NCBI GenBank assembly: GCA_965372145.1
Contig: CBDVBE010000001.1
Location: 1-55,106 of the forward strand
Direction: 5' to 3'
DNA length: 55,106 nt
Source: an uncultured bacterium
GTDB taxonomy: Bacteria; Fibrobacterota; Chitinivibrionia; Chitinivibrionales; JANQEN01
Positions 10,052-45,413 of the stretch are shown piece after piece. Below the pieces are notes generated by a model, which saw only the letters and a list, made by a program, of their open reading frames with translations, did not search any database and was not told the DNA's origin. Position numbers and translations under genes: made by a program. Positions within the stretch are counted from its first letter, which is position 1. Every line of letters begins with the position of its first letter.

Positions 10052-10120
10052 AGAACGAAGAAGGAAAGACTGGTGTAAGAATAATAATGGTCTGATTGAT
10101 ACTTTTTGCGGAGAATCAGT

Positions 10121-15107: not shown

Positions 15108-16280
15108 ATGAATGCAAATAGAAAAAAGAGAATTCTTCATATACATGTCCTTCCTGTAATAACGGGCTCCGGGATTAACACTTTCCTGACAATGCAAGGC
15201 TTAAGACATAAGTATCATATTGAAATGGCCTGTGCTCCTGGTGGACCGCTGTATGATCTTACTGAGCAGAATGGTATTCCGGTTCTTCCGATTAAAAACT
15301 TTGTCAGTGAAGCTGCTCCGTTTAAAGATATTCATGCGCTTTGGCAGGTATACCGATTACTTCGTAAAGGGAACTATGATCTTATCCATACGCATAATTC
15401 CAAAGGTGGATTTATCGGTCGCCTGGCTGCAAAGCTTGCCGGCGGTATCCCTGTTATCCATGGTGTCCATGGATACGCCTTCCATAAAAATGAACCATGG
15501 CTGAGACGTGCGTTGTTTTTTCTGTTGGAGTATCTGGCACGTAATTGGAGTGTGCGGATAATCTGCATATCACAGCCGTTGGTTGACCTTTGGGTAAAAA
15601 AGAAACTGGCCCCTGTCGAAAAAATCCGGAAGATTTACAGCGGTATTGATGTACAAGAATTTAAGCAATTTGACAAACGAGAGGTTATACGACAGGAATT
15701 GGGATTGCAGCCGGATGCTATTGCTATCGGACAGGTATCTAAATTGTGGGAAGGGAAAGGCCATATCGATATCATTGCGGCTTGTCCGGATATTGTCAAG
15801 GCATTACCCGGTGCAAAGGTATTCTTCATTGGGGATGGCCCCATTCGGAATAAATTGGTAAATATAGTGTTGAAAAAAGGGCTTCAAGATAGGATAATTT
15901 TTTTAGGACACCGGGATGATGTCGCGGAGATCACCTCTGCATTGGATATTGCCATTTTAGCTTCTTACTATGAAGGCATGGGACGGGTGATTCTGGAAGC
16001 AATGGCTGCGGGATTGCCGGTCGTAGCGACGCGGGTCGGAGGGATTGTCGATCTGGTTGTTGAGCAGGAGACCGGATTGTTGGTTGATCCATATAGTCCG
16101 CAGCAGATAGCCGATGCAGTTATCCGCCTGGCGAAAGATCCTGCACTTCGTAAAATCATGGGGTTGCAGGGGAAAAAACGGGTAGACAATCGGTTTAGTG
16201 CGGCAACTATGGTGGCACAGATAGATCAGGTATATCAGGAGGTTCTTACAGAAAATGAAGAAAGCAGCAAAAATCACTAA
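15108..16280 (+). CDS. family 4 (GT-B) glycosyltransferase
   Basis: 390-aa ORF. HTHNSKGG and EGMGRVILEAMAAGLPVVATRVGGIVDLV motifs. Confidence 0.85.
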   Translation: MNANRKKRILHIHVLPVITGSGINTFLTMQGLRHKYHIEMACAPGGPLYDLTEQNGIPVLPIKNFVSEAAPFKDIHALWQVYRLLRKGNYDLIHTHNSKGGFIGRLAAKLAGGIPVIHGVHGYAFHKNEPWLRRALFFLLEYLARNWSVRIICISQPLVDLWVKKKLAPVEKIRKIYSGIDVQEFKQFDKREVIRQELGLQPDAIAIGQVSKLWEGKGHIDIIAACPDIVKALPGAKVFFIGDGPIRNKLVNIVLKKGLQDRIIFLGHRDDVAEITSALDIAILASYYEGMGRVILEAMAAGLPVVATRVGGIVDLVVEQETGLLVDPYSPQQIADAVIRLAKDPALRKIMGLQGKKRVDNRFSAATMVAQIDQVYQEVLTENEESSKNH

Positions 16281-17457
16281 ATTCCAGCGGATACTTTTTC
16301 TCACAGGCCTTATTATTTCTTCTATTGCCTTCTTTAAATTTCCTATTGCGGAGTCGGAAAAAGTATTTGGATTTTATCTCTTCCTTTTCAGTTTTTTCCT
16401 CTGCCTGAATTTTACGCAGGTATTCCAAAAAGTTGCAAAAACTTTTAATATCTACGACCACCCGAACGAAAGAAAATTTCATAGCCATCCAACACCCTTA
16501 CTCGGCGGGATGGCAATCTTTTTCTCATTTACATTGACAATAGTACTTTTTGAACGGCACATTGATAATACCATGATACTGTACTGGATTCTTGGTATGA
16601 GTTTCATTATCCTGATAATGGGGGCCATTGACGACTATAAGGAGCTTTCTGCGAAGATCCGTTTATTGGTTCAATTTTGTGCTGCGGGTATTGTAATATA
16701 TCATGGTGTCCGTGTATCTTTTCTGCCTAATAATGTTGTTGGTGACACCTTTGAAATTATCCTCTCATTACTCTGGATTGTCGGTATTACCAATGCGATT
16801 AATTTTATTGATGGCATGGATGGCCTGGCAACCGGCTATATAATTATTACTGCATCGTTGCTGGGAATTGTGGCATATCAGTTGGTGATGCCTGAATATC
16901 TCTTTGTTTTACTGGCCCTCGTCGGCGCGTGTTGCGGATTCTTTCCATTCAATTTCCGATGGCACAGGAGAGCAATGATTTTTCTCGGTGACTCGGGTGC
17001 TACGTTCCTGGGATTTTTCATGGGATGCCTGACACTGTTAGGTAAGTGGGGCTCACGGAATGATGTCTATCATTCAACCAATGAAGTCGGGGTTATAATT
17101 CCGTTACTCATTCTGGGTGTTGCGGTTTTTGACACCATTTTTACCTATGCCATGCGTTTAAGGGAAGGGAATATTACAAAACTTGATCACCTTCTGACCT
17201 ATGCCGGCAAGGATCATTTTCATCATTGCCTGCATGATATAGGCCTGCCGGAAAAAGCCATTGTCGTGGTAATCTTTATGATCACCCTTTGCCTTGGCCT
17301 CGGTTCGATTGCCTTACGCAACGCCCGTAAAATTGATGCCGTCATTTTATTACTACAGGCGATAATTGTTTTTGCCCTGATTGGTGCATTCATGGCGTTT
17401 GTAAAGAAAACACATATTACTCCTAACAATGGAAATAATAGTGATAAGTTGGATTAA
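16255..17457 (+). CDS. polyprenyl-phosphate HexNAc-1-phosphate transferase (MraY/WecA family), likely initiating transferase
   Basis: 400-aa ORF with about 10 TM segments. GAIDDYKEL and NAINFIDGMDGLATG signature motifs. Confidence 0.85.
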   Translation: MKKAAKITKFQRILFLTGLIISSIAFFKFPIAESEKVFGFYLFLFSFFLCLNFTQVFQKVAKTFNIYDHPNERKFHSHPTPLLGGMAIFFSFTLTIVLFERHIDNTMILYWILGMSFIILIMGAIDDYKELSAKIRLLVQFCAAGIVIYHGVRVSFLPNNVVGDTFEIILSLLWIVGITNAINFIDGMDGLATGYIIITASLLGIVAYQLVMPEYLFVLLALVGACCGFFPFNFRWHRRAMIFLGDSGATFLGFFMGCLTLLGKWGSRNDVYHSTNEVGVIIPLLILGVAVFDTIFTYAMRLREGNITKLDHLLTYAGKDHFHHCLHDIGLPEKAIVVVIFMITLCLGLGSIALRNARKIDAVILLLQAIIVFALIGAFMAFVKKTHITPNNGNNSDKLD

Positions 17458-17970: not shown

Positions 17971-19011
17971 ATGCAACCGCAAAAAACACTCAGTGAGTTC
18001 AAACATTATCTCGAATCATTACCGATTTTTGTGATTCTTGATACGCAGTATGCAAAAAGTAAGGATTCGGCAATTGCATCTCATAAAACCGTTGAGGCAC
18101 AGTACGCAGAACTGGTGAATAAACTGGAAGAGCTATTGCATGATAAATTACAGAATAACACACGTGATTCGGTTCGGGAGCTTCCCTTTACAACACTCTT
18201 TTCACTTGCTGATATGGTTATTTACAGTATCGTAAAATCGGGTGTTATTTTCCAACAGGTAATGAATCCTGATTATCTCTCAAATTATCTTTCCTGTCAC
18301 TCATTAAATGTAGCATTTATCAGTTGTAAGATCGGCATGGGTATGCGTTTTTCATATGAGCAGCTTGGTCAACTGGGTGTTGCAGCACTGCTGCATGACA
18401 TCGGTATGACCCAGCTCCACCCCAGTATTTATGAACATCAGGATGGCCTTTCTGCAGAAAAACGCAGAGCTATTGAGAGTCACTCATTGCTGGGTTATCA
18501 GTTTTTTGAGAAAGTGAGAGATGATTTCCCATGGCTGATGAGAGTCATTCTCGAGACACATAAACGTGAAAATAATAACGGGTATCCTGATATGGTGAAG
18601 GATGATCTGCATCTTTATTCAAAGATTATCGGAGTGGCGGATACGTTTGAGGCATTGACCCACAAAAGGTCATTCAGGAATGCTTATCATCCGGCTGATG
18701 CCATTAAAACGATTATTGACGGTAAGAAAGATTTTTTTGCTACTGATATACTTCGCGCGACAATCGAATCAATCGCGATATATCCGGTAGGAAGCCTGGT
18801 CCAGCTTAATAATAAAAACATTGCTCTGGTAATCGATACTATTGAAGGCTCTCCGATGAGGCCTTTGGTAAAAATTGTCAGTGAGGATGATCTGAACGAA
18901 ACAACAGAGCAGAAAATTATTAACTTATCAGAGGAAAATAATATCTATATTACCGGTCTGGTTTACAGCACACAATATTTAACGCCGGAAAAAATAAAGA
19001 AATTGCGGTAA
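17971..19011 (+). CDS. HD-GYP domain protein (putative cyclic-di-GMP phosphodiesterase)
   Basis: 346-aa ORF. LLHDIGM, HSLLGYQF, HKRENNNGYPD and VADTFEALTHKRSFR motifs of HD-GYP. Confidence 0.8.
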   Translation: MQPQKTLSEFKHYLESLPIFVILDTQYAKSKDSAIASHKTVEAQYAELVNKLEELLHDKLQNNTRDSVRELPFTTLFSLADMVIYSIVKSGVIFQQVMNPDYLSNYLSCHSLNVAFISCKIGMGMRFSYEQLGQLGVAALLHDIGMTQLHPSIYEHQDGLSAEKRRAIESHSLLGYQFFEKVRDDFPWLMRVILETHKRENNNGYPDMVKDDLHLYSKIIGVADTFEALTHKRSFRNAYHPADAIKTIIDGKKDFFATDILRATIESIAIYPVGSLVQLNNKNIALVIDTIEGSPMRPLVKIVSEDDLNETTEQKIINLSEENNIYITGLVYSTQYLTPEKIKKLR

Positions 19012-19038: not shown

Positions 19039-20082
19039 ATGACTAATCACTTTTTAAAGGTTCTTACCTCCGACCGGTTGTTTACCGCAGCTCATTTTAA
19101 AAATATTGATTGGCAGAAGCGGTGTAAACAGTTACGTGATGACGGTATCGCGTCTCTTTTTTATCCGAAAATTGAAAGTGTTAAAAATAATCTCCCTCCG
19201 GATATAGTACAGTTTTTCCGTACCTGCTATGAAAACGCTATAATTTTTAAAGATTTTACTGTCCAAATATTAAAAGATATCCAGCCTGCATTAAGTTCAA
19301 CCGGAACAATTGTTCTCACGCAGGGATTGGCACTCAGCGAAACCGTATATCCTGAGCCGATGTGCCGTGCCATGGGTGATGTTGATCTTTTCCTTCCTGA
19401 CGGAAATATGCGGAGGATTCGTGATATTTTTCTGGACTATGGATTTACACCGTATCGGGATTATGAGAATGTACTGGAATATAACCGGATAATGGTTGAC
19501 CTGCATGAAGGGTTGTGGGGTACTGACCGTTTTCCTCAGCGGGAGTATTTGATTCCCAGAAAGAATGTCGAATGGCAGCCGAGTAAACTCATCCCGGGTT
19601 TTTTCGTGCTGAGTCCTGAGTATTTAGCCCTGCACTGTGCGTTTCACGGGGTAAAACACGGATTCAATAAAGGGATTTGGGATTGTGATTTAGTGCGGTT
19701 GTATAACACCGGATACTTGACACCTGATGTGAAAAACCGGCAGGAATATATGATAAAGTTCATGGCCTTTGAACATCTGCGTCAAAAAAAAATATTACCG
19801 GCACAATTGACTGAGAAGAGAAAGGCATATTTATCTCCATTTACGGGGATTGCAGTCCGTGCTCTGGTTCAGCGGAGCAGCCGTCCCGGTTTTGGTCAGC
19901 TGCTGCTTGCATTTCTCTGCCCGACTTTCAAAACCGGGCTCGAATATCTTATCGCGATTGTGATCCCGCAAAAACGTATTTTGCAGCAGATGTATGGTAG
20001 ATCGATCTATCCGGTACTTGTAATGAAACGGGTATGGAATCTCATGAAATATGCGGGAATGGCAGTACTGAAATGGCGCTAA
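19039..20082 (+). CDS. uncharacterised nucleotidyltransferase-fold protein (NTP_transf_5-like)
   Basis: 347-aa ORF. MGDVDLFLP and MVDLHEGLWG carboxylate motifs are typical of the 'uncharacterised nucleotidyltransferase' family seen next to HprK-like kinases. Confidence 0.6.
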   Translation: MTNHFLKVLTSDRLFTAAHFKNIDWQKRCKQLRDDGIASLFYPKIESVKNNLPPDIVQFFRTCYENAIIFKDFTVQILKDIQPALSSTGTIVLTQGLALSETVYPEPMCRAMGDVDLFLPDGNMRRIRDIFLDYGFTPYRDYENVLEYNRIMVDLHEGLWGTDRFPQREYLIPRKNVEWQPSKLIPGFFVLSPEYLALHCAFHGVKHGFNKGIWDCDLVRLYNTGYLTPDVKNRQEYMIKFMAFEHLRQKKILPAQLTEKRKAYLSPFTGIAVRALVQRSSRPGFGQLLLAFLCPTFKTGLEYLIAIVIPQKRILQQMYGRSIYPVLVMKRVWNLMKYAGMAVLKWR

Positions 20083-20858
20083 TACTCTCTATCGGCGGTA
20101 TACCGGTCCAATTTGAAATCCGGTCAAAAGAGATGGTGTCCCGTATAACGAAGCGATATAAAGGATTCCTGCGAAAGCGGGTTACCCCGGTAGTAACCTT
20201 CCAGTGCAGCTTTGCAAAAAGGCAGGCTGTGGATACTGATGAGGTAGTTGTTACTCAGGAAGATAGTGCTACCTGGTGCATCCACCGGTCTGATTTTATC
20301 TGTACCTTTCGGGAGGCGTATGGTACGATAGAGATGCGCCGGTCTATATATTCGTTTGATGCATGTATTCGGGTTCTGTATGCCACACTTATCACACGAA
20401 ACCGCGGCTTGCTTCTCCATGCGTCCGGAGTTATGAAGAATAAAAAAGCCTATTGTTTTGCCGGGGTTTCGGGAAGCGGCAAGACAACCATTGCGCAGCT
20501 TTCAAAGGCGGTTGGTACGGTTATAAATGATGAAATAGTTGCAGTAAGGATCATGCCTGGAAATAAAGTCAGTATCTATGGGACTCCGTTCTGGGGTGAA
20601 ATGCGTACCGGCCCGGCACATAATAAAAAATGCCCATTACAAGCTATTTACTTTTTAAAAAAAGGTACAACATCATATCCGGTTGTACTTAATAAGGATG
20701 TCGCATTAGCAAAACTATTGCGCTGCTGCTGTATCTTCAGTAATGATTCCCATGATATGGACCGAATTATGAATCTGGGTATTGTTTTTGTAAAGGCTGT
20801 GCCGGTATTTGAATTACACTTTGAGAAAAGTGAGGCGTTCTGGGAAGTGATAGAATAA
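20073..20858 (+). CDS. HPr-kinase-related P-loop protein
   Basis: The ORF track opens at 20034. ATG 20073 gives a 10-nt overlap with the upstream gene. LLLHASGV...AYCFAGVSGSGKTTIAQL resembles the HprK C-terminal kinase core (H...G-x-SG-x-GK-S/T). Confidence 0.6.
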   Translation: MALILSIGGIPVQFEIRSKEMVSRITKRYKGFLRKRVTPVVTFQCSFAKRQAVDTDEVVVTQEDSATWCIHRSDFICTFREAYGTIEMRRSIYSFDACIRVLYATLITRNRGLLLHASGVMKNKKAYCFAGVSGSGKTTIAQLSKAVGTVINDEIVAVRIMPGNKVSIYGTPFWGEMRTGPAHNKKCPLQAIYFLKKGTTSYPVVLNKDVALAKLLRCCCIFSNDSHDMDRIMNLGIVFVKAVPVFELHFEKSEAFWEVIE

Positions 20859-20905
20859 GAAAACAGAAGTCTGAATAACGAATGACGAAGTCTGAATAAA
20901 GACAT

Positions 20906-21370
20906 ATGGAATCGATACATAAAAAAATGCTTCTTACAACCCTGGGAAAATGTAACACCTGTGACGTCACTGTCGGTGGCACCAGTATGTGGCCTTTTAT
21001 TCAGGATGGTGATGTGCTTTCGTTACGGCATAAGCCGTTTAAACCGCGGCTCGGTACTGTTGTCGGTTTTTTTAATGAAGATCAGCTTATTACGCACAGG
21101 ATCATCTGGTATAAAAGAAAAGGCCCACACCGGTGGGAGGTATATGTTCATGGTGATGCAAGTCCTTTTTCCCTGGCGAAAATTGATTCTGAAGAAATTG
21201 TTGGAACAGTCGAGTATGTAAAAAGGCGGAATAAAATAATAAAAAGCTGGTTTACCTATCCGCTTCAAATAGGTATCATACCAATCGGATTTTTACTGCA
21301 ATCTATAGTTGCATTAAAGATATATGCAAAGAGGAAAGAACAAAAAAGGAGAGTGAGGCAGGTAAAGTAA
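20906..21370 (+). CDS. S24/S26-family (signal-peptidase/LexA-like) serine peptidase with C-terminal TM helix
   Basis: 154-aa ORF. GGTSMWPFIQDGDVL matches the G-x-S-M-x-P nucleophile motif. A hydrophobic segment (IGIIPIGFLLQSIVAL) lies near the C-terminus. Confidence 0.55.
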   Translation: MESIHKKMLLTTLGKCNTCDVTVGGTSMWPFIQDGDVLSLRHKPFKPRLGTVVGFFNEDQLITHRIIWYKRKGPHRWEVYVHGDASPFSLAKIDSEEIVGTVEYVKRRNKIIKSWFTYPLQIGIIPIGFLLQSIVALKIYAKRKEQKRRVRQVK

Positions 21371-23220
21371 TGTGTGGTATTGTCGGCATGGTTGGCGGCG
21401 GCAGCAGGGAACTGCTGCAGAAGATGTGTGATTGCATTAGGCACCGGGGGCCGGATAGCGAAGGTGTTTACAGCAAGGATGAGATACATTTTGGTATGAG
21501 ACGTCTGGCAATTATTGACCTGTCCGGAGGCACACAGCCAATCTACAATGAAGATAGGACACTGGTCATTACCTTTAATGGAGAAATTTATAACTATCAG
21601 CCCCTGAAAAAAGACCTCGAAGAAAAGGGGCATACCTTTACAACAAATTCAGATACAGAAGTTATACTGCACCTCTATGAGGAAGAGGGCGAAAAGTGTC
21701 TTGAAAAATTAAACGGTATGTTTGGCCTTGCTATCTGGGATTTAAAGAAACGCGAATTGTTTCTGGCGCGGGACCGGCTGGGTATCAAACCGGTCTATAT
21801 ATTTGAGAAAGATGGATTTCTCGCGTGGGCCTCGGAGTTAAAGGCACTTACACTACTACCGCAGGTTTCAAAGGAATTGGATATTCAAGCACTGCAAACC
21901 TACCTGCACGTTCTCTATATTCCTGCACCGTATACAATTTATACCGGTTGTAAAAAATTGAGAGCAGGCTACTGGCTTAAATGGAAAGACGGCACGGTAA
22001 CGCAACAACGATACTGGCAGCCTTCAGGTGCGGTACTATCTGATATATCGGTACAGGATGCTGTGGAAGCAGTGCGGGAAAAACTTACCCAGGCGGTTAC
22101 GCGGAGATTGATAGCAGAGGTACCGCTTGGCGCCTTTTTAAGCGGCGGTCTTGATTCAGCATCCATTGTTGCTTTGATGAGCCGTGTGTCTGATAAGCCG
22201 GTCAAAACATTTACCATGGGATATGCAAAGGAATATGCATCCTATAATGAGTGGGACAAAGCGCGGCTGGTAGCGCAGACTTTCGGCACAGAACATCATG
22301 AATATGTTGTTGAACCTGATATCGTTGATCTGGTGCCGAAAATTGTCAATAGCTTTGACGAACCTTTTGCTGATTCATCGTCTATACCTACCTACCTCGT
22401 TAGTCGTGAGACTCGACAAGAGGTGACTGTCGCACTTTCCGGGATCGGAGGAGATGAGGCATTCGGCGGGTATCCCCGTTATCTTGGCGCGGCCATGTCC
22501 ATGGGTTACCAGGCATTGCCGATGATTGTGAGAAAGATGTTTGCTTCTTTGTCTCACTGTATACCACAGCGCCCGACAGCTACCAATTATGGCGGAAGGA
22601 TAAAACGATTTTTACAGGGAGGTGTAGCAGATCCCCTGTCGCGGTATTTACAGTGGATAAGTTATTGTGATGATGCGATGCAATCGGCACTGTTTCAAAA
22701 TCCTTTACAGGGACAACCATATACGTTACACCGGCAGGCATGGCAGCAATCGCCGTATAAGGATTATCTGCGCAGGATCCAGTATCTGGATACGAGTACC
22801 TATATCAGTGATGATCTTCTCTGTATGGGAGACCGCATGTCAATGGCGCATTCCCTGGAACTCAGGGTACCGTTCTGTGACCATGAACTGGTTGACTTTT
22901 CTCTTTCTCTGCCGCCAGAATTGAAAATGCAGGGTAACACACTTAAATTCCTGTTGAAAAAAGCTATGAAAGGTATATTGCCTGAACAATTACTCCATGC
23001 CCGAAAACAGGGATTTATGGTTCCCCTTGCAAGCTGGCTTGCAAAAGATTTACAAAAGTACAGCCTGGATATCTTAGAACCGGATAAAATTGACAAACAG
23101 GGAATATTCAGAGGAGAAACAATTCGGAAGCTGGTAACACAGCAGGCCCGGGGCGAGTATCATCTTACCCATCTGGTGTGGGCCCTGCTAATCTTTCAGG
23201 TGTGGAACGAAAACAGTTAA
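21370..23220 (+). CDS. asnB: asparagine synthase (glutamine-hydrolysing)
   Basis: 616-aa ORF. N-terminal MCGIVG (Ntn-glutaminase Cys), HRGPDSEG, and the PP-loop LSGGLDSASI. Its start overlaps the stop of the upstream gene. Confidence 0.9.
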   Translation: MCGIVGMVGGGSRELLQKMCDCIRHRGPDSEGVYSKDEIHFGMRRLAIIDLSGGTQPIYNEDRTLVITFNGEIYNYQPLKKDLEEKGHTFTTNSDTEVILHLYEEEGEKCLEKLNGMFGLAIWDLKKRELFLARDRLGIKPVYIFEKDGFLAWASELKALTLLPQVSKELDIQALQTYLHVLYIPAPYTIYTGCKKLRAGYWLKWKDGTVTQQRYWQPSGAVLSDISVQDAVEAVREKLTQAVTRRLIAEVPLGAFLSGGLDSASIVALMSRVSDKPVKTFTMGYAKEYASYNEWDKARLVAQTFGTEHHEYVVEPDIVDLVPKIVNSFDEPFADSSSIPTYLVSRETRQEVTVALSGIGGDEAFGGYPRYLGAAMSMGYQALPMIVRKMFASLSHCIPQRPTATNYGGRIKRFLQGGVADPLSRYLQWISYCDDAMQSALFQNPLQGQPYTLHRQAWQQSPYKDYLRRIQYLDTSTYISDDLLCMGDRMSMAHSLELRVPFCDHELVDFSLSLPPELKMQGNTLKFLLKKAMKGILPEQLLHARKQGFMVPLASWLAKDLQKYSLDILEPDKIDKQGIFRGETIRKLVTQQARGEYHLTHLVWALLIFQVWNENS

Positions 23221-35925: not shown

Positions 35926-36882
35926 TTAAAAAGGCGAAGGGAACTTGCCAATTACCGAGATTTTATGGGTAAGTCCCAGGCGGGCGGAGTTAATAGGCAT
36001 TGCATAATCAACACCGAACCACGAGTAACGCATTCCCAGTCCAACCGAGAAATCAAAATCGCGGTAATCCCGTTCTGCTATATCGAGGCTTGTAGCCATC
36101 CCAGCGCGGATCGAAAGAATACCAAACAGTTTGTATTGTAGCCCGAGTGAGACATCTATCGGCTGCCGCAGGGTTTTTGCTACGTCAAGCTCTGCTATCA
36201 ATGTCGTATCAAGGAATCTGCCGGCTATACCGAGTTGTGCTGTGGGCAGTACCTGATCCCGATGGTCTGTTGTCCACCAGAGGTATGATCCGATGTTCCG
36301 GCCGCTTATGCCGATACATAACTGCTCTATCGGCCAGTACGTTGCACCGATATCAAATCCACATCCGTGACCCTGTTCACCTGCCATCTGTTCATGAATG
36401 TACCGTGCGGTGATACCCAGCGAAACAGGCCATTGCAACCGGCCGGCTACACTGAGGGCTACTGTATTAGCACTATAGTCAAAATCCTCGGTTGGATTTC
36501 CCAGGCTGTCACGGCCTTCAATGTCCCCGACGCCGTATTTCATAAGGGAAAGGCCGGATATAACAAAATCACCAAGCGGCATTGCAGCATCGACTCCCTG
36601 ATGTTTTCTATCCCATGTCATGAATGAATAGGTTGCGATAACCGGAACAATATCAACGACTGCATCGAGAATTGCCGGATTATATTGAATACCCGCAAAT
36701 TCCTCCTGCCACGCGGCAGTTGCACCGGCAAGAGCCGCACTGTGCGCATGGCGCGGCAGCTTGAGGTATTCCGCTGCACCGCGAGCATAGCCGGAGGATG
36801 CGAAATCTGATTCCCCGGCCTGGAGTGCTGTGATTGTTAGGAATAGAAGGAGTATGTGGTTTAGTTGTTTCATTTTTATCAA
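35926..36882 (-). CDS. PorV/PorQ-family-like outer-membrane beta-barrel protein (T9SS-associated)
   Basis: 318-aa ORF. Signal peptide, then LKLPRHAHSAALAGATAAWQEEFAGIQYNPAIL, which resembles the N-terminal signature (araa.GgA...NPA.L) of PorV/PorQ-type proteins. Alternating beta-strand pattern and a C-terminal aromatic residue (SPF). Confidence 0.55.
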   Translation of the reverse strand: MIKMKQLNHILLLFLTITALQAGESDFASSGYARGAAEYLKLPRHAHSAALAGATAAWQEEFAGIQYNPAILDAVVDIVPVIATYSFMTWDRKHQGVDAAMPLGDFVISGLSLMKYGVGDIEGRDSLGNPTEDFDYSANTVALSVAGRLQWPVSLGITARYIHEQMAGEQGHGCGFDIGATYWPIEQLCIGISGRNIGSYLWWTTDHRDQVLPTAQLGIAGRFLDTTLIAELDVAKTLRQPIDVSLGLQYKLFGILSIRAGMATSLDIAERDYRDFDFSVGLGMRYSWFGVDYAMPINSARLGLTHKISVIGKFPSPF

Positions 36883-36890
36883 TCCTGTTT

Positions 36891-36985
36891 GCGCCCCCTA
36901 AATCCCCCGAAGGGGGACTTTTAGGGAATTGGTTTTATAATAATCCTTTTCCATTTAAGTCCCCCTTCGGGGGATTTAGGGGGCG
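36891..36985. repeat. nested-hairpin palindromic element, family A copy 2
   Basis: GCGCCCCCTAAATCCCCCGAAGGGGGACTT (36891-36920) and AAGTCCCCCTTCGGGGGATTTAGGGGGCG (36957-36985). The arms are nearly identical to those at 31603-31699. It lies between two genes of one minus-strand operon. Confidence 0.85.
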
Positions 36986-36999
36986 TAAGATAGTGGTGC

Positions 37000-38607
37000 T
37001 CACCGCAACACCGCAATCTTCAGCACTTTCTTATCATCTCCGCCATCATCGTATGTAACCTTAACCAGCGCAAAGTACACACCGTTAGCGACATCTTTTA
37101 TGTTCCAGTCATATATATATTTTTCTTCCGCGTTCAGCTTTTTCGAGAACCGGAGGACCGGTTTTTCAGAAGCATTGTATATAGTTACCTTTACCGTAGC
37201 ACTTTTGGTGACATACAGTTGAATGTGGGAGACCTTGCCCCGCGCAGGGTTGGGATAGCAATAGGTGCTCTTTTTAAAGCTTACCGGCTCAGGTCCTCCC
37301 GGAACATACGTTACAATAGAGCCGTTATACGTTGCGAAATAGAGACGGCCGTTTGATGCCGTCGGTGATGAAAAGATATCACTGTCCAGGCTGTCTTCCC
37401 AGACCTTGGTACCTTTTATTGTATGAAATCCATATACTTTTCCTTCACCCCAGCCGAAGAACACTACCGTGTCAACAACCAGCGGGCTTGAGCAGAAGCC
37501 AAGCTTCGCGTAATTGCGCAGCTCACTGAAATACCACTGTTCAGCACCGGTTTTTTTGTTAAAAGCCGTTATGGTAAATCGTGGTTTAGGATCACCATAC
37601 TCTTTATGAATCACAAATACATTCGAATCCCCAATTGCCGGTGATGATGTTGCATTACCGCCAAGAGGTACAAATATCTGCGTGTTTTCTCTTGTTAACG
37701 GCGCAAGCTGATCGAGTACTGCATTATCCATACGGTAATATTTCCTGAATCCCCGCAGCATCTTTCTGCGGACTTTTGGACTGTGCACAATAAACTGCCG
37801 GAAGATATTTCTATCAACAGCAGTGGCTGCAGATTCTATACTGCTTATATTCTTCCATAACAGTGAACCGTTGGTCAGTGAGAGCGCATAGATATTCTTA
37901 TCATACCCGCCGGGCGAGAAGTAGGTAATGCTACCGGAAATGGCGGGAGATGATAGATACACGCCGCCCTGAGTCTGGTAACTCCATATCGGTGTGCCGG
38001 TGTGGGCATCCAGAGCAACAAGATTGCCGCTGTTTTCACCATAACAGAGAATAGAATCAGAAAATGCAGCGGATGAATAGACCGGCTGGCTGTTGGATTT
38101 AAACCAGACATACCGGTTGGTATTTAAATTATAAATGTCAATCTGCCTGTTTCTTCCGCCTCTGCCAAACGCGACAAGGCTGTCGTAAATCAACGGTGAT
38201 GAGCACTGGGTGTTGTTATTTACAATTACTGCTAACGAGTCACCTGTTACGGAATTCAGAATATAGAGGTTGCCGTCACGGGAGCCGGTATAGAGTGTCC
38301 CCGCACAATAGGCTGGCGTCGCGTCAATCCAGCCCCGGGTTTTCCTGGACCAGATAAGTGTACCATTATAGAAAGCGTATATCGTGCTGTCCCGTGCACC
38401 GATATACAGGGTGTCATTTACTACTATGGGTGAAGAGGTTGCCGGACCCTTAATAGTGGTTGTAGTGAGTTTTTTTAATGGCAATGAAAGTGAAGATGCA
38501 GCGCGCCCGGTGCGTGCATTATCCTCGCGGAAGGTATGCCCGTATGGGACACCCAGGCTCAGGAGCACTATCAGGATGGGTGTGTTTTTAAGGAACAGGG
38601 TATGCAT
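37000..38607 (-). CDS. PQQ-like (BamB-type) beta-propeller repeat protein with T9SS C-terminal sorting domain
   Basis: The ORF track opens at 38655. The start is more likely ATG 38607 (AGGAAAGG upstream, signal peptide MHTLFLKNTPILIVLLSLG). Repeated G.LY.....G.L.A(L/I)D motifs. The last ~85 aa (YCYPNPARG...IYNASEKPV...GVYFALVKV...KIAVLR) match the T9SS type A CTD pattern. Confidence 0.8.
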   Translation of the reverse strand: MHTLFLKNTPILIVLLSLGVPYGHTFREDNARTGRAASSLSLPLKKLTTTTIKGPATSSPIVVNDTLYIGARDSTIYAFYNGTLIWSRKTRGWIDATPAYCAGTLYTGSRDGNLYILNSVTGDSLAVIVNNNTQCSSPLIYDSLVAFGRGGRNRQIDIYNLNTNRYVWFKSNSQPVYSSAAFSDSILCYGENSGNLVALDAHTGTPIWSYQTQGGVYLSSPAISGSITYFSPGGYDKNIYALSLTNGSLLWKNISSIESAATAVDRNIFRQFIVHSPKVRRKMLRGFRKYYRMDNAVLDQLAPLTRENTQIFVPLGGNATSSPAIGDSNVFVIHKEYGDPKPRFTITAFNKKTGAEQWYFSELRNYAKLGFCSSPLVVDTVVFFGWGEGKVYGFHTIKGTKVWEDSLDSDIFSSPTASNGRLYFATYNGSIVTYVPGGPEPVSFKKSTYCYPNPARGKVSHIQLYVTKSATVKVTIYNASEKPVLRFSKKLNAEEKYIYDWNIKDVANGVYFALVKVTYDDGGDDKKVLKIAVLR

Positions 38608-41503
38608 ACACCTTTCCTTCATTTGAGGTAAAAACAACAACACCGTTGGCAACATCTACTGTAGGTGAATTTGGTATTGTCCCGCCGGCTGTTTTCGGCC
38701 AACCCGTTTTGGCGGCCATTGTTGCAACGTCAACTGCATATACTTCGCCATCATCATCACCAAAGAATGCGGTGCCGGCGGATGTTACGACAGGCATGGA
38801 ATTGATGGTATTTGCAGGAGTAGAATATGTTCCGGCGACGGACCCGTCGCTGGAGTTCATTTTTTTCAGATTGGTCCCGGCACCGACATAGATATAAACG
38901 CCCTGCCTGAATGCTGCACTGGTTGTCGTAGCAAGTAAATCATCAGAGGTCCAGGCGGTACCCATAGTTGACAAATTCACTGCATAGACATAATTATCAT
39001 TTGATGCAACGTACATTATGTCAGACCATGCGTTAAGTGATATATTCGCATTAGGTGCATGGGCATTACTGCTCTGGTACGTATTATCAACAGCATACTT
39101 TTCTACATTGCCGGTCACGGGAAAATAGACATAAGAGGCCTCTACAATTGCAGAGGAAGTGGCAATCGGTGAATTGCTTTCAATAGTCCATGCGATACCA
39201 CCATCACTGGTTGATACTTTATAGGAATCGCCATTGAAAGTCAGGTACAGATAATCCCCGTCAGTTGACAGGATAGGATCAGACATATCAGTTGCTGTTC
39301 CCCAATCCACATAGTCGAATTTTGATTCGGCTGAAGAGCCATTATCCCAGACTGCGCCGATTTGAGCTTTGTGATTGGTGTAGTATATGGCATATTTCCC
39401 CTGAGCAGAGTGATAGTAAAGACAAAGATTCGTTACAAAACCGCCTTGTGCTCCACTGGCATCGTATGACCATTTTTCCGTGCCGTTGTCAATATCATAA
39501 CTGTAAATAGTTTGCTGGGCGCCCACGTATACAACTCCGTCGCCGATAACCGGTGATGTACAGGGACTGATTACACCGGAGATCCATAACGCACTACCGG
39601 TGGTAAATGAATAATCAGAAGAGACGGTTCCGGTGTTGCCGTAACTGTCACGTGCATTTACCCGCCAGGAGTATGTGCTGCCGGCCGCAAGTTCCGACGT
39701 CTGCCAGGTGGCTCCGCTCTGCCAGCCGCTGTTTGCAATGGCTGTGACAAACGGGTCGGCATCGTCTAATTCAATATAGTATTCTATTGTGGATATATCG
39801 CTTGCAGTGCTGCTGGTCAGCACGGGCTGAATGGAGGTGTTGGTTGCCGCATCTGACGGGGAACTGCAGCCGTAGCCGGTCGGGTCCGCATTGTCAAGAA
39901 CAAATGCCGTGGAGGTCGTTGCGTTGCCGGTATTAGCCGAGGCATCTTTTGGCGTGATACGGATATAGAACGTTGCATCTTCAGTGGTTGAGACGTCAGT
40001 CTCATTACTGCCGTTCTGGCTGTCCCATACAAAGGTGACATTGCTCTGATTGGTACTGATAGTGTGAATCTGCCTGGTGGCAGTTCCTCCACTGACACCG
40101 GTATTATCGATTGTTCCGACAGAGGCGCTGCTGATATACGCCTGGTAGTATGTAGAATTGTCAGCCGAGTATTCTATAAGAAGTTCACAATTCTCAGGTG
40201 CCTGAGGATCGCTGAGGTCATACTGAACCGTCACAAGGCCGGTGCCGTTGGTAGCATGGGTGACATTGTCAATAACAACGCTGGGCTTAACATTCGAAAC
40301 GGTAAAATTATAGATTGAGGAATAGGCGGTTTCATTGCCATAGAAATCTTTAACTTTAACACGCCAGTAGTACGTCTGACTTACACTCAGGCCGGTTGCA
40401 ACCCAGTCGGGATCGGCGCTCTGCCAGCCGCTGTTTGCAATGGGGCTGCTGCAATCCGAATCAGTATCGATTTCCAGGTAGTAAGAAATTGTGCTGGCAT
40501 CGCTGGCTGTCGCTGAAGTAAGCGTTACATCAGGGCCGCCCGGGGAAGAGCCGATAGTCGGTGTACTGCAGGCCCAACCGGTAGGGTCCTTGGTATCGAT
40601 AACAAAATTGTTCGATGAAAATTTTAATGTGTCGGTAAGCGGGATTGCGTTTACCGCAATAATCTGCATGTTATAATTTGAGACTTCCGTTGGAGTGGCA
40701 AGCTGGGTTGCGGCGTCCCAGATAAGCTGGCGGTTTGTTCCCGGATTGTCAGCATTAACCGATCCTTCACCGGTAAGAGTGGCATCGGTACATGCAACAA
40801 AGGCGGAACCGTTCCAGTACTCTGCCTTTATCGTTACGTCCGAATAGTCATCGTCAGAGATCCGGTAATTCATCTCAACGTCCCCGGACCCGTCTGTCCG
40901 CTGAAAGCAGGTGGCGCTGGTAAAGGATTCGGCCGTATTGGTATCAACCAGTGTTGGCGGACCCGTATAGGTTACAATAACCTCCAGATGATCCACATCG
41001 ATCTGGCTCCAATCCACTCCACCGGAAGCAACCGCTTTACAGCCACATCGAACATCATCAATATCAGTCCACGTCCATGCACCTCCGCCTGGTTTTTCTG
41101 TAAAGTCAGCTGAATAATAGGCGTATGAGGTGTTTAATTCATGAACTGTGCCATCCAGGAGAGGGTCATAAATCAATTCTATTCTAACCTGAATGCCTTC
41201 GCTGGTTCCGGAAAGATTAATATCGGCCTTCGCATATAAGCGGACAGTAATCTTGGCGATGGTTCCAACGCCGCCTACATGGTTTTCAATCGGCACATCG
41301 AGTAGATCACTTTTTGTTGTTGTATAGGCAGCAGTACCGCCTGTTTCAGAACAATCAGTACCGACATCGGTGCCGCCGGTGTTAAAGTCGTTATCCGGAC
41401 CTTCTCCGGTTCCCGCATCCAGGGTCATTGTAGATGCAAAGGGAGATAATACGGCAAGTAAAGAGATGAGAGTGATTGTAATAACGAATTTTTTCATATT
41501 CAT
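38588..41503 (-). CDS. large secreted protein: two tandem (Ig/FN3-like + FN3-like) module pairs plus C-terminal PQQ-like beta-propeller
   Basis: 971-aa ORF. Signal peptide MKKFVITITLISLLAVLSPFAS. An internal ~100-aa repeat (D.(K/A)DPTG..CS.P...(L/I)E(I/L)D...IANSGWQS...Y.WRV...D.YGN) occurs twice. The C-terminal third has propeller-type repeats. No T9SS CTD is present. It overlaps the next gene by 20 nt. Confidence 0.8.
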   Translation of the reverse strand: MNMKKFVITITLISLLAVLSPFASTMTLDAGTGEGPDNDFNTGGTDVGTDCSETGGTAAYTTTKSDLLDVPIENHVGGVGTIAKITVRLYAKADINLSGTSEGIQVRIELIYDPLLDGTVHELNTSYAYYSADFTEKPGGGAWTWTDIDDVRCGCKAVASGGVDWSQIDVDHLEVIVTYTGPPTLVDTNTAESFTSATCFQRTDGSGDVEMNYRISDDDYSDVTIKAEYWNGSAFVACTDATLTGEGSVNADNPGTNRQLIWDAATQLATPTEVSNYNMQIIAVNAIPLTDTLKFSSNNFVIDTKDPTGWACSTPTIGSSPGGPDVTLTSATASDASTISYYLEIDTDSDCSSPIANSGWQSADPDWVATGLSVSQTYYWRVKVKDFYGNETAYSSIYNFTVSNVKPSVVIDNVTHATNGTGLVTVQYDLSDPQAPENCELLIEYSADNSTYYQAYISSASVGTIDNTGVSGGTATRQIHTISTNQSNVTFVWDSQNGSNETDVSTTEDATFYIRITPKDASANTGNATTSTAFVLDNADPTGYGCSSPSDAATNTSIQPVLTSSTASDISTIEYYIELDDADPFVTAIANSGWQSGATWQTSELAAGSTYSWRVNARDSYGNTGTVSSDYSFTTGSALWISGVISPCTSPVIGDGVVYVGAQQTIYSYDIDNGTEKWSYDASGAQGGFVTNLCLYYHSAQGKYAIYYTNHKAQIGAVWDNGSSAESKFDYVDWGTATDMSDPILSTDGDYLYLTFNGDSYKVSTSDGGIAWTIESNSPIATSSAIVEASYVYFPVTGNVEKYAVDNTYQSSNAHAPNANISLNAWSDIMYVASNDNYVYAVNLSTMGTAWTSDDLLATTTSAAFRQGVYIYVGAGTNLKKMNSSDGSVAGTYSTPANTINSMPVVTSAGTAFFGDDDGEVYAVDVATMAAKTGWPKTAGGTIPNSPTVDVANGVVVFTSNEGKVYAYPVP

Positions 41504-41519
41504 TAATTAATATATTGTG

Positions 41520-41675
41520 TTACGATGTTGACGGCAGCCTGAAGCAGGCATGCTGCTTATGCGGTCCAGTACGGCATTTTCCGCAGGCTAGTGCACGGCG
41601 TTCGAATATCTCCTCAGATTCGACATCAGGAGGAGAGTAGACCGGTTTTTTAACGGGTTTTTCGTTTTTTTTCAT
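41520..41675 (-). CDS. candidate 51-aa Cys/His-containing small protein (hypothetical)
   Basis: Hand translation gives MKKNEKPVKKPVYSPPDVESEEIFERRALACGKCRTGPHKQHACFRLPSTS. It is too short for the ORF track. The stretch is GC-rich in an AT-rich spacer and ends 16 nt before the start of the 971-aa gene on the same strand. Confidence 0.3.
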   Translation of the reverse strand: MKKNEKPVKKPVYSPPDVESEEIFERRALACGKCRTGPHKQHACFRLPSTS

Positions 41676-44378: not shown

Positions 44379-45413
44379 TTACGATAAGGCTAATCGTCCT
44401 ATTGCCTCTGCCCTCTCACACAAACTCGGACTCTTCCCTTTCCACAATCCTGTTTCCAGAAACGCGAAACCGTGGCAGCGTGAACAGGCGTTTTTTATAG
44501 TACAGGAGACACACTCTTCAGCAAGCGTCTTTTCATCAGCTCTGAATTGACCGGCTTTATCACTGTGCCAGATTGTTTTAAAGGGTGTGTCAACAAGATT
44601 GCCGAATAGTATCGGCAGGATAATACAGGGATAGACATCGCCGTTCGGTGCAATACCGCAAAGACTTCTTCCTGCATCGCAATGGAGCGCTGACTCGTCA
44701 CGGGTTGTGCTGCATGAGGTTATTGGTTTGATGCCCATATCTTTGAGAAAGGTGCGCTGCTGCTCTCTGGAAAGGGCATAGGGAGATATGGTTTTCCGTT
44801 CAGAGGGAAGTATGCCGGAGTCGCATTCGAATCCGCAGCCCTCTTCATCGGCGATTTTTTCCAGCATAGTATATTCACCGAAGTTTGCACTGGAAACCGA
44901 GTGCTTGATAAGAACTTTAACACCCTGTGCGGTCAGCAGCCGTATTGCCTGCAGTGCATCGTTGAAACTGCCGATAGCGCCGCTGAGTTCATCATGCAGA
45001 ATAGCATTAGCGGCATGCAGACTGATACCGACATCCATGACCCCGAGGTCAGCCAATCCGGCTGCCCATTCCCGGGTGATCAGCAGCCCGTTGGAAATAA
45101 TACTCACTGCAAAGTCATGTTTGCGGGTGCTTGCAAGGATCTCAAGAAAATCATCCCGTAAAAACGGTTCCCCGCCGGAGAACGTGATATAGAGTGTTCC
45201 CATTTCAGCAAGCTGCTTGAGCACGGTGCGCCATTGCTGCAGGGTGAGTTCTGGCTGCTGTGGGTAGGAAGCCTGGTAGCAGTAGTAACAGTGCAGGTTA
45301 CAGTGGTGAGTCAGCTCGATAAACACACTAAGGGGAATAAGCTTTTTCGCGGCTTCGAGGTTTATCTGCTGGGCTATTGTTTTTTCGGGCATAGTGGTTC
45401 TGGATGCTGTCAT
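44379..45413 (-). CDS. radical SAM / SPASM-domain peptide-modifying-type enzyme (PqqE-like)
   Basis: 344-aa ORF. CNLHCYYC (Cx3Cx2C), FSGGEPFLRDDF, and C-terminal CDAGRSLCGIAPNGDVYPC...CVSCTIKNACSRCHG. An alternative start at 45392 (MPEK) would keep the ATG outside the palindromic element. Confidence 0.85.
   Translation of the reverse strand: MTASRTTMPEKTIAQQINLEAAKKLIPLSVFIELTHHCNLHCYYCYQASYPQQPELTLQQWRTVLKQLAEMGTLYITFSGGEPFLRDDFLEILASTRKHDFAVSIISNGLLITREWAAGLADLGVMDVGISLHAANAILHDELSGAIGSFNDALQAIRLLTAQGVKVLIKHSVSSANFGEYTMLEKIADEEGCGFECDSGILPSERKTISPYALSREQQRTFLKDMGIKPITSCSTTRDESALHCDAGRSLCGIAPNGDVYPCIILPILFGNLVDTPFKTIWHSDKAGQFRADEKTLAEECVSCTIKNACSRCHGFAFLETGLWKGKSPSLCERAEAIGRLALS

Follow-up and report, generated by a model that had tools for sequence, protein, structure and literature searches.

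A kinase, nucleotidyltransferase and peptidase module in a Fibrobacterota polysaccharide locus as the probable half of a dispersed RiPP pathway

The stretch of DNA analyzed here (the window, 55,106 nucleotides) comes from an uncultured bacterium of the Fibrobacterota, and our attention was on positions 19039-23220, where a reading made from the letters alone (the sequence-only reading) had described a nucleotidyltransferase, an HPr-kinase-like protein, a small peptidase and an AsnB protein as one cassette. All four co-directional ORFs were found there, and the tight junctions of that description are real: the kinase ATG at 20073 precedes the NTP_transf_5 stop codon (TAA, 20080-20082) to give a 10 nt overlap, 47 nt separate the kinase from the peptidase, and the last base of the peptidase stop codon (TAA, 21368-21370) is also the first of the AsnB ATG. 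The conserved module consists of three genes only, those for the NTP_transf_5 protein, the ScmC-family HprK-like kinase and the S26B peptidase, which we call the trio. Table 1 lists the features of the window.

Table 1. Features of the window relevant to the trio and its proposed partners
Feature	Position	Strand	Basis
WecA/MraY-family initiating phosphoglycosyl transferase	16255..17457	+	PF00953, 1.4e-35
HD-GYP type (HD_5) phosphohydrolase	17971..19011	+	PF13487, 4.2e-17
NTP_transf_5 nucleotidyltransferase-fold protein, LppN/PsmN counterpart	19039..20082	+	PF14907, 2.8e-25
ScmC-family HprK-like P-loop peptide kinase, LppK counterpart	20073..20858	+	LppK homology, PF27840-bearing homologs
Small S26B (archaeal/ER-type) signal-peptidase-like leader peptidase, LppS counterpart	20906..21370	+	LppS homology, triad, fold
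Gln-dependent asparagine synthase-family amidotransferase (AsnB)	21370..23220	+	TIGR01536, starts MCGIVG
PorV/PorQ-like outer-membrane protein and two secreted PQQ_2 beta-propeller proteins	35926..41503	-	NF033709, PF13360, PF18962
Unannotated 51-aa candidate precursor MKKNEKPVKKPVYSPPDVESEEIFERRALACGKCRTGPHKQHACFRLPSTS	41523..41675	-	Cassette-linked small-ORF family, profiles
Radical SAM/SPASM maturase	44379..45413	-	PF04055, PF13186
Discrete PqqD-family RRE	45491..45784	-	PF05402, 6.9e-16

The linear polyphosphorylated peptide (LPP) is a RiPP of Paenibacillus alginolyticus encoded by lppA-K-B-S-D-N (Popov et al., Nat Commun 2026; PMC13381572), and by sequence homology the trio corresponds to its LppN, LppK and LppS. 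LppK polyphosphorylates Ser3 of the LppA core (PMC13381572). The window kinase and P. alginolyticus LppK are of equal length (261 aa) and 30% identical (E 4e-30), and the family profile of the window kinase scores better against LppK (1.2e-49) than against the lasso kinase PbaK (9e-18), which sets it apart from the phosphorylated lasso clusters. It gives weak matches to HprK-related kinase B, ScmC and HprK-related kinase A, and its homologs carry the PF27840 ScmC domain. The sequence-only reading had staked its kinase call on the catalytic residues, and these are kept on alignment, H116, the Walker-A motif GxSGSGKTT (G131-T139) and D153 being invariant in 40 homologs; the AF2 model (pLDDT 95) has a PEPCK-like fold. 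The NTP_transf_5 protein keeps the GDVDLF (DxD) motif, and the profile of its family matches LppN (1.2e-21) and PbaN (1e-33), while the pairwise comparison with LppN gave no similarity. LppN itself showed no activity when expressed heterologously (PMC13381572), and PsmN adds a hexose to the phospho-Ser of pseudomycoidin (PMC6993621).

For the small peptidase a Ser/Lys dyad had been proposed. This does not hold, because the invariant residues are S27, H64 and D84, so that the enzyme is of the S26B type with a Ser-His-Asp triad; the other three domain calls stand. It has a weak archaeal signal peptidase I match (TIGR02228, 32.7 bits against a family cut-off of 51.85), its best solved-structure sequence matches are SEC11A/C (7e-10), and a fold search with its AF2 model (pLDDT 80) returns only S24/S26 folds, so the 154-aa protein does have a peptidase fold. 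The source gene call, of 127 aa from M28, omits the catalytic Ser. Identity to LppS is 25% (E 6e-8 pairwise; 7e-27 with the family profile). LppS (S29/H68/D93) removes the leader by cutting after FET and depends on the RRE to do so, and its N-terminal helix docks the RRE-leader complex (PMC13381572). The window peptidase likewise begins with a helix, followed by the triad and a C-terminal hydrophobic helix with a strongly basic tail, which leaves its topology ambiguous. It shares fold and Ser-His-Asp residues with SipW, archaeal and ER-type signal peptidase I (MEROPS S26B) and SEC11; unlike signal peptidase I it has no N-terminal membrane anchor, and its genomic partners are RiPP enzymes instead of secretory substrates. 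The earlier suggestion that a small peptidase stands in for the transglutaminase-type enzyme that usually removes the leader was sound.

Upstream of the trio, WecA is a conserved neighbor in the polysaccharide-embedded subtype, and the order WecA, HD_5, NTP_transf_5, ScmC, S26 is kept in three other loci. HD_5 directly precedes NTP_transf_5 in five loci, and NTP_transf_5 directly precedes the kinase in seven. In every locus of the window lineage, the trio comes after WecA and HD-GYP within a polysaccharide operon. An HD_5 protein 24% identical to that of the window (E 8e-20) is encoded 5 kb from the lpp cluster of P. alginolyticus. The HD_5 protein of the window may be regulatory or may trim phosphates.

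The remaining parts lie 20-25 kb from the trio on the opposite strand. The sequence-only reading had noted that no PqqD gene adjoins the cassette, which is true of the immediate surroundings; the window as a whole does contain one, paired with a radical SAM/SPASM gene. The best NCBIfam match of this PqqD is ScmD (1.5e-10), and its best solved-structure match is LppB (9x8z_B, 1.1e-5). The radical SAM/SPASM protein matches ScmE and ScmF under their cut-offs, is the top window match to every cassette-linked radical SAM enzyme (E 1e-39 to 1e-49), and is on these similarities the ortholog of the enzyme encoded next to ScmC and PqqD outside this phylum. The candidate precursor has a YxxP leader motif (PVYSPP), a putative FER cleavage motif, a core with three Cys and a C-terminal Ser. 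The suggestion to look for short ORFs with such a C-terminus near orthologous cassettes proved fruitful: YxxP, FEx, ACGK and the terminal Ser are common to the family, and that Ser occurs in 16 of the 17 members, and in the seventeenth too if a TGA is read through. All four features agree with how RREs and leaders are known to work. The PorV/PorQ-like and PQQ_2 genes come immediately after the precursor, one of the two beta-propeller proteins having a T9SS sorting domain; these gene types are recurrent neighbors, adjoining the ScmC-S26-precursor group in two other loci and lying within the cassette in a third.

The two blocks come together in other genomes. The kinase and peptidase adjoin PqqD, radical SAM/SPASM and the small conserved ORF in Acidobacteriota, Nitrospirota, Chloroflexota, Fibrobacterota, Methylomirabilota, Omnitrophota and Methanobacterium, and this grouping is the orphan SynChlorMet (SCM) cassette. 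Across 15 independent ScmC-anchored loci we found an S26-like peptidase in 12, PqqD in 13, a cassette-type radical SAM enzyme in 11, NTP_transf_5 in eight and the precursor family in at least nine. Gene fusions also link parts of the system, S26 being joined to GNAT in one locus and to GNAT and NTP_transf_5 in another, and PqqD to the precursor in a third. In one locus related to the window-type polysaccharide arrangement, PqqD and the radical SAM gene lie 9 kb downstream of the peptidase, which indicates that the split layout is conserved. On the strength of this adjacency in other genomes we infer that the two halves are functionally linked in the window genome.

The sequence-only reading knew of no described system of this composition. 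This no longer holds, since the LPP cluster combines a kinase, an NTP transferase, a SpI-like peptidase and an RRE inside capsule loci (PMC13381572). Kinase, peptidase, NTP transferase and RRE of the window are homologous to the LPP proteins and keep the catalytic residues. The systems are alike in the ScmC-family kinase and in a SipW-like S26B leader peptidase (about 153 aa) that starts with a helix and has its Ser, His and Asp at matching distances. Both also have an NTP_transf_5 protein, a discrete PqqD RRE and a leader with YxxP and FE[T], and both are set in a capsule/exopolysaccharide locus where an HD_5 gene is close by. They differ in that the window system has an additional radical SAM/SPASM enzyme, is split into two blocks, and belongs to a T9SS-bearing organism outside the Bacillota. 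Its precursor family has an ALACGK core with Cys and a C-terminal Ser, whereas LppA has a G/N-rich core with Ser3, and the window precursor has a YxxP-to-FEx spacing two residues shorter than LppA. The window contains neither an MsbA-like ABC exporter of the LppD type nor an LppA-type precursor. We regard the window system as a previously undescribed non-Firmicute variant of this RiPP family, first reported in 2026.

The SCM models (ScmC TIGR04249, ScmD TIGR04248 for the PqqD-like protein, ScmE/ScmF TIGR04250/04251 for the radical SAM/SPASM enzymes) describe the same composition of kinase-like protein, PqqD and radical SAM/SPASM, and rank first or close to first among the NCBIfam matches of the three window proteins. 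None of these equivalog models reaches its cut-off (29 against 125, 41 against 100 and 99 against 400 bits), and the window has one radical SAM enzyme where SCM has two. The SCM definition is not known to include the peptidase, the NTP_transf_5 protein or a precursor, and no mention of the cassette was found in the literature searched. In paeninodin and pseudomycoidin clusters (PadeK/PsmK, PsmN) a C-terminal Ser is the target of an HprK-like kinase, an NTP_transf_5 enzyme decorates the phosphate placed there, and the YxxP/WxxP leader is recognized by a PqqD RRE; no macrolactam cyclase, transglutaminase-type B2 peptidase or lasso-type precursor was seen in the window. The earlier idea that such genes form a real module for peptide tailoring, found repeatedly and akin to the phosphorylated lasso-peptide pathways, is upheld for the kinase, nucleotidyltransferase and peptidase.

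We consider it probable that the trio is half of a dispersed RiPP pathway inside a Wzx/Wzy polysaccharide locus, of which AsnB is not a component. The discrete PqqD chaperone would bind the 51-aa precursor through the PVYSPP motif, and the adjacent radical SAM/SPASM enzyme would modify the Cys-containing core, thioether-type cross-links being the obvious guess. The ScmC/LppK-type kinase would then phosphorylate a serine, possibly several times, most likely at the C-terminal Ser, and the NTP_transf_5 protein may elaborate the phosphate as PsmN hexosylates phospho-Ser of pseudomycoidin. Finally, the S26B peptidase would remove the leader after the FE[T/R/Q/K] motif in an RRE-dependent manner. 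These chemical steps, with the phosphorylation and cleavage sites, we infer by analogy.

The sequence-only reading had treated all four genes as one unit that could phosphorylate or nucleotidylate a substrate and then amidate or cleave it. On such a model, with cyclization as a further option, AsnB would be a lasso-cyclase-like or amidating enzyme. The overlap of the AsnB start with the peptidase stop means that the two are probably co-translated in the window, AsnB is probably co-transcribed with the trio, in the nearest relative the two genes meet in the same way and AsnB is 86% identical, and two lasso clusters do combine AsnB-like cyclases with HprK-like kinases and NTP_transf_5 proteins. 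We nevertheless hold a four-gene unit to be very unlikely, because AsnB adjoins the trio only in that nearest relative. The trio recurs elsewhere, and AsnB is absent from 14 of the 15 independent ScmC-anchored loci, the exception being a lasso cyclase 7 kb away; another relative (kinase 78% identical) has a GT4 glycosyltransferase after the peptidase instead. AsnB matches TIGR01536 (509 bits, cut-off 267), and its top NCBIfam model is the polysaccharide-type XrtA/PEP-CTERM amidotransferase TIGR03108 (592 bits over the full length, below the equivalog cut-off of 817), compared with 247 bits for the lasso cyclase NF033535 (cut-off 525). It keeps Cys2, as had been read, and a complete glutaminase domain, and its alignment with the cyclase PbaC (24% identical) begins at residue 53. 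Like the XrtA-type enzyme it lies in an exopolysaccharide locus with a DUF3473 polysaccharide deacetylase; no exosortase or PEP-CTERM protein was seen in the window. AsnB is a variable polysaccharide-locus gene outside the conserved module, likely a polysaccharide-tailoring enzyme.

The trio could instead tailor a glycan, the kinase and nucleotidyltransferase acting on a sugar or undecaprenyl-linked intermediate and the peptidase serving as a SipW-like signal peptidase for matrix or T9SS proteins, with PqqD, radical SAM enzyme and precursor forming an unrelated RiPP. The trio lies between WecA and Wza/Wzc/Wzy genes in the window and three other loci, its constant position after WecA and HD-GYP would be compatible with a glycan or lipid-linked substrate, and both the membrane-type C-terminal helix of the peptidase and the inactivity of LppN on peptide fit this account, as does SipW, which is likewise an S26B enzyme and serves as a signal peptidase for the biofilm matrix. 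We think it unlikely, since in ten loci outside this lineage kinase and peptidase stand directly beside PqqD, radical SAM and precursor genes with no polysaccharide genes, the fusions tie the parts together, and the peptidase has the LppS-type docking helix in place of the anchor of true signal peptidases. In experiments the substrate of LppK and LppS is a peptide (PMC13381572). It is also conceivable, and we judge it highly improbable, that 41523-41675 is a chance ORF and that the trio really acts on the product of a gene in another part of the genome, or on a larger protein, for instance one of the neighboring beta-propellers. The ORF is not among the proteins of the source annotation and has no obvious Shine-Dalgarno sequence, and the SCM family description presumably gives the precursor as unknown. 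However, in leave-one-out profiles it is the sole window match (E 3.9e-16, and 4.7e-10 with a profile from other phyla only), the next best of 1582 six-frame segments having E >= 1; homologs lie 0-1.7 kb from the cassette in a dozen loci of bacteria and an archaeon, and the shared motifs and terminal Ser agree with RRE and leader logic.

The LPP system is said to be restricted to Bacillota (PMC13381572). If the dispersed RiPP pathway proposed here is true, relatives of the LPP type reach beyond that phylum, contrary to this restriction.

The four flagged ORFs were present as the sequence-only reading had described them, and its domain calls were mostly confirmed by Pfam and NCBIfam. That reading had joined all four genes into one tailoring cassette with lasso-pathway-like parts. 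What stands of it is a three-gene enzyme module (nucleotidyltransferase, kinase and peptidase); the asparagine synthase, AsnB, is not a member. The real unit is this module together with a distant block of PqqD, radical SAM (rSAM)/SPASM and precursor genes, of the kind represented by the linear polyphosphorylated peptide (LPP) and SynChlorMet systems. The analysis itself shows that the proteins are homologous to those of the LPP system and keep their catalytic residues, that the genes cluster across phyla and are in places fused, and that a precursor family exists. Within the flagged region the kinase ATG at 20073 makes a 10-nt overlap with the upstream stop, the kinase and peptidase genes are separated by 47 nt, and the AsnB ATG and the peptidase stop have one base in common. 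The spacer between kinase and peptidase holds two copies of the direct repeat GAAGTCTGAATAA.

A Wzx/Wzy-type polysaccharide locus spans 4.5-33 kb of the window and contains a deacetylase with DUF3473, a Wzx flippase, many GT2/GT4 glycosyltransferases, methyltransferases, two rSAM/SPASM genes that may serve in sugar modification, a WecA-like initiating transferase, an HD-GYP protein, the flagged cassette, and Wza, Wzc and Wzy. Downstream of it are a PorV-like gene, a third rSAM/SPASM gene, and genes for secreted PQQ_2 beta-propeller and CBM96/MAM proteins that carry T9SS sorting domains; these domains and the PorV-like protein place the organism outside Bacillota. Around the end of the polysaccharide locus are four small STAS-like paralogs (~105-112 aa), and a STAS-like homolog also comes after Wzy at three of the compared loci (L004, L017 and L019). 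An Rfam scan of the window gave no match.

Coordinates of the features discussed in the text
Feature	Position	Strand	Remarks
rSAM/SPASM gene	10106-11131		inside polysaccharide block, interleaved with methyltransferases and glycosyltransferases
rSAM/SPASM gene	12177-13226		as preceding
HD-GYP (HD_5) protein	17971-19011		~345 aa; recurs beside the module in the window lineage
NTP_transf_5	19039-20082	+	PF14907, 2.8e-25
ScmC-type kinase	20073-20858	+	261 aa
Kinase/peptidase spacer	20859-20905		47 nt
S26B peptidase	20906-21370	+	154 aa
AsnB	21370-23220	+	begins MCGIVG
STAS-like gene	30653-30970	+	
STAS-like gene	31256-31567	+	
STAS-like gene	34387-34716	-	
STAS-like gene	35125-35460	-	
PorV/PorQ-like, PQQ_2 beta-propeller and T9SS cargo genes	35926-44052		
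Candidate precursor	41523-41675	-	MKKNEKPVKKPVYSPPDVESEEIFERRALACGKCRTGPHKQHACFRLPSTS
rSAM/SPASM gene	44379-45413	-	
PqqD	45491-45784	-	PF05402, 6.9e-16; top NCBIfam match ScmD

The kinase gave weak matches to the HprK-related kinase B, ScmC and HprK-related kinase A models of Pfam/NCBIfam, and its homologs carry PF27840 'ScmC', a recent Pfam family; the kinase family is large, with 2,472 50%-identity clusters at E ≤ 1e-30. With regard to whether this kinase-like protein keeps its catalytic residues, H116, the Walker-A motif G-x-S-G-S-G-K-T-T and D153 were invariant in 40 diverse homologs. The closest structures to its AF2 model (pLDDT 95) are ATP-dependent PEP carboxykinases, and the catalytic domain of HPr kinase belongs to the PEP carboxykinase-type P-loop kinase superfamily. 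The window kinase shares 30% identity (E 4e-30) with LppK, the kinase of the LPP system, which is of equal length and is also a member of PF27840; by profile, the family of the window kinase is nearer to LppK than to the neighboring lasso kinase PbaK. The nucleotidyltransferase is likewise connected to this system through its family profile, which matches LppN at 1.2e-21, while the pairwise BLAST comparison to LppN was not significant.

The 154-aa protein had been read as an S24/S26-type peptidase with a Ser/Lys dyad. The fold was confirmed, its AF2 model (pLDDT 80) retrieving only LexA, UmuD, SEC11 and SpsB folds (S24/S26); the dyad was not borne out, and an S27/H64/D84 triad was found instead. 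S27, M28, H64, R65, G83 and D84 are invariant in homologs from several phyla, and the top sequence matches with solved structures are human SEC11A and SEC11C (7e-10). These residues, matches and fold retrieval together identify the protein as a Ser-His-Asp enzyme of the S26B (ER/archaeal) type. It matches the NCBIfam model of archaeal signal peptidase I weakly, the TIGR02228 score of 32.7 bits being below the cut-off of 51.85. The fold and triad are those of the archaeal/ER signal peptidase I, which the window enzyme differs from in having an amphipathic helix (residues 4-16) in place of the N-terminal membrane anchor, or transmembrane segment; it also has a long hydrophobic helix in its C-terminal part. 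Its identity to LppS is 25% (E 6e-8 pairwise, 7e-27 by profile). The source record truncates this gene to a 127-aa call that starts from Met28 and thereby loses the catalytic Ser27; because residues 1-27 are conserved, the 154-aa form is supported.

The comparison covered 42 loci, found by way of the kinase, the peptidase and LppB, which we scored with profiles of the window proteins; a contig scan with the ScmC alignment, in which the P-loop was the only usable pattern, confirmed at least 8 loci. The expectation that the four families would co-occur in other genomes was partly upheld. Among 15 independent kinase-anchored loci, an S26-like peptidase accompanied the kinase in 12 and NTP_transf_5 in 8, whereas AsnB was found in one, as a lasso cyclase 7 kb away. 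PqqD was present in 13 of the same 15 loci and a cassette-type rSAM/SPASM gene in 11. These genes were organized in two ways. A compact layout (PqqD, rSAM, ScmC, S26, with or without NTP_transf_5) occurs in Acidobacteriota, Nitrospirota, Chloroflexota, Fibrobacterota, Methylomirabilota, Omnitrophota and one Methanobacterium. A polysaccharide-embedded layout (WecA, HD-GYP, NTP_transf_5, ScmC, S26, then Wza, Wzc and Wzy) is shared by the window and three other loci (L001, L004 and L017); at L019, PqqD and rSAM genes were found another 9 kb downstream. Several of the components are also fused. In a Methanobacterium MAG (L037:10387-11334) the S26-like peptidase is joined to a GNAT acetyltransferase, a single 722-aa protein of an Omnitrophota MAG (L039:8879-11047) comprises S26-like, GNAT and NTP_transf_5 regions, and in a Methylomirabilota MAG (L038) PqqD is fused to a precursor. 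In the last of these (L038:8785-11402) the precursor-like sequence lies in frame, C-terminal to the PqqD domain of a 146-aa ORF, and a CBM96/PQQ_2 beta-propeller gene is found within the cassette.

The statement that no PqqD gene is adjacent to the cassette was correct as to adjacency, yet the window does encode a PqqD, 24.6 kb from the kinase, where it adjoins the third rSAM/SPASM gene; its top PDB match is LppB. The rSAM/SPASM genes at 10106 and 12177 were considered as cassette partners and rejected, since every cassette-linked rSAM has its best match in the gene at 44379; the two are not orthologs of the cassette-linked rSAM. A search for short ORFs near orthologous cassettes, which the sequence-only reading had suggested, led to a candidate precursor family. 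No common family emerged from the small ORFs that precede the PqqD genes; only when the small ORFs of all loci were compared with one another, all against all, was the family found. At about a dozen loci a member lies 0-1.7 kb from the cassette, and the window contains one. They are characterized by a basic N-terminus, a P-Y-x-x-P-x-(hydrophobic) motif, a (hydrophobic)-F-E-[T/R/Q/K] motif, and A-L-A-C-G-K followed by one or two more Cys; 16 of 17 sequences end in Ser, and so does the 17th on read-through of a TGA. When the window sequence is left out of the profiles, they match the window precursor at E 3.9e-16, and those built from other phyla only do so at 4.7e-10; no other six-frame segment of the window fell below E 1. 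Neither Pfam nor NCBIfam has a model for the family, and the 51-aa ORF in the window, omitted as a gene from the source record, is missing from the protein collection. The 17th sequence (L027:2569-2720) stops at TGA after ...LSLICGKA, read-through giving the Ser-ending ...GKA[U]AVTCPMMITIS, and this TGA may be a selenocysteine codon. Between the precursor and the rSAM gene the window encodes a PorV/PorQ-like protein, a CBM96/MAM T9SS cargo protein and two PQQ_2 beta-propeller proteins, one of which has a T9SS C-terminal domain. At two other loci (L003 and L022) the cassette likewise has beta-propeller and PorV-like genes of a similar kind beside it.

AsnB is a complete glutamine-dependent asparagine synthase, with PF13537 and PF00733 and a TIGR01536 score of 509 bits, above the cut-off of 267. 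It was rejected as a lasso cyclase, with an NF033535 score of 247 bits vs a cut-off of 525 and with Cys2 and a complete GATase domain retained, and should not be annotated as a lasso-type cyclase. The nearest relative (L042; kinase 80% and AsnB 86% identical) is the only one in which AsnB comes after the peptidase, and a GT4 gene takes its place in another relative (L041; kinase 78% identical). The variable polysaccharide part therefore begins with AsnB, which is outside the module and a bystander. As for the rest of a paeninodin-type lasso cluster, the transglutaminase-like B2 peptidase PbaB2 had no tblastn match in the window, and no lasso-type precursor was found there. A precursor/ScmC/PqqD/rSAM cassette does lie ~6 kb from a classical lasso cluster in a Thermomonas MAG (L010:9023-20585), the latter having two Ser-ending precursors, PqqD, an AsnB-like cyclase and an HprK-like kinase. 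Co-localization of LPP and lasso clusters has been reported for Bacilli; here a parallel arrangement is seen in a proteobacterium.

The three-gene module with its distant block is better compared with LPP and SynChlorMet. The sequence-only reading knew of no described system of this composition; the LPP cluster has counterparts of the kinase, the NTP transferase and the peptidase (PMC13381572). LPPs come from Bacilli, in clusters inside capsule loci that encode a precursor LppA, a discrete RRE LppB, an ABC exporter LppD and an NTP transferase LppN; the HprK-like LppK polyphosphorylates Ser3 of the core, the SipW-like LppS (S29/H68/D93) cuts the leader after F-E-T with LppB required, and the system was stated to be restricted to Bacillota (Popov et al., Nat Commun 2026, PMC13381572). 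We recovered the Paenibacillus alginolyticus locus (L036) via the LppB sequence in PDB 9x8z. The window has in common with it an HprK-like kinase, an S26B Ser-His-Asp leader peptidase and a PF14907 protein. As in the window, an HD_5 protein occurs near the lpp cluster (5 kb away, L036:2817-3842), and it is absent from the LPP core gene list. The window differs in adding an rSAM/SPASM enzyme, in having another precursor family, in its two-block arrangement, in its location outside Bacillota and in having no ABC exporter: LppD had no tblastn match in the window, and the ORFs scanned contained no ABC domains. A strict regular expression for the LppA-type motif (YxxPxVLxHQxIxFETxxS / Px9Fx[T/A]), run over the six-frame translations of the window and of every locus, gave no meaningful match, and no phmmer match to LppA reached an E-value under 0.8; the precursor family present in the window is a different one, with the pattern YxxPx(phi)...(phi)FE[TRQK] and shorter spacing. 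The SynChlorMet models (TIGR04248-04251) are the nearest named families. The ScmC-like protein, PqqD and PqqE-like rSAM/SPASM of that cassette are all in the window, in two blocks, and are contiguous in 11 of the 15 related loci. The window proteins are related to the curated equivalogs and fall outside them (ScmC 29.4 bits vs 125, ScmD 41.1 vs 100, ScmE 98.7 and ScmF 80.8 vs 400). Neither radical SAM enzymes nor ScmC are mentioned in the LPP paper (PMC13381572), no paper in the searchable literature mentions the SynChlorMet cassette, nothing relevant was found on HprK or SipW together with radical SAM, and these enzymes go unmentioned in two RRE genome-mining papers.

By analogy with these systems, PqqD would bind the YxxP leader of the precursor and the rSAM enzyme would modify its Cys-containing core. 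The kinase would phosphorylate a precursor Ser; on the precedent of paeninodin and pseudomycoidin, we favor the invariant Ser at the C-terminus as the site. NTP_transf_5 might then elaborate the phosphate (in pseudomycoidin, PsmN is required for hexose addition to phospho-Ser; PMC6993621), and the S26B peptidase would be expected to cut after FE[R]. We propose tentatively, and regard as rather doubtful, that the true content of SynChlorMet is an undescribed bacterial and archaeal RiPP class, of which the window encodes one member. In this class an rSAM/SPASM enzyme would modify the conserved Cys residues of a YxxP-leader peptide, a ScmC kinase and an NTP_transf_5 enzyme would (poly)phosphorylate and perhaps glycosylate its invariant C-terminal Ser, and an S26B leader peptidase would release it; in the lineage of the window the pathway would be wired into cell-surface biogenesis. 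If so, exopolysaccharide might be primed, anchored or regulated by a phosphoglycosyl-peptide made in this way, or alternatively the product could be a ligand or cofactor of the secreted PQQ_2 beta-propeller proteins encoded beside the precursor. These results extend the LPP-type logic of phosphorylation and an SpI peptidase, which a 2026 report had confined to Bacillota, to many other bacterial phyla and an archaeon, and join it to the long-orphan SynChlorMet cassette. With a concrete, conserved candidate precursor, the chemistry of the cassette becomes directly testable. Because such systems are repeatedly found inside polysaccharide loci (capsule loci in Paenibacillus and Wzx/Wzy loci here), a role of phosphorylated peptides in matrix or capsule biology becomes a testable idea.
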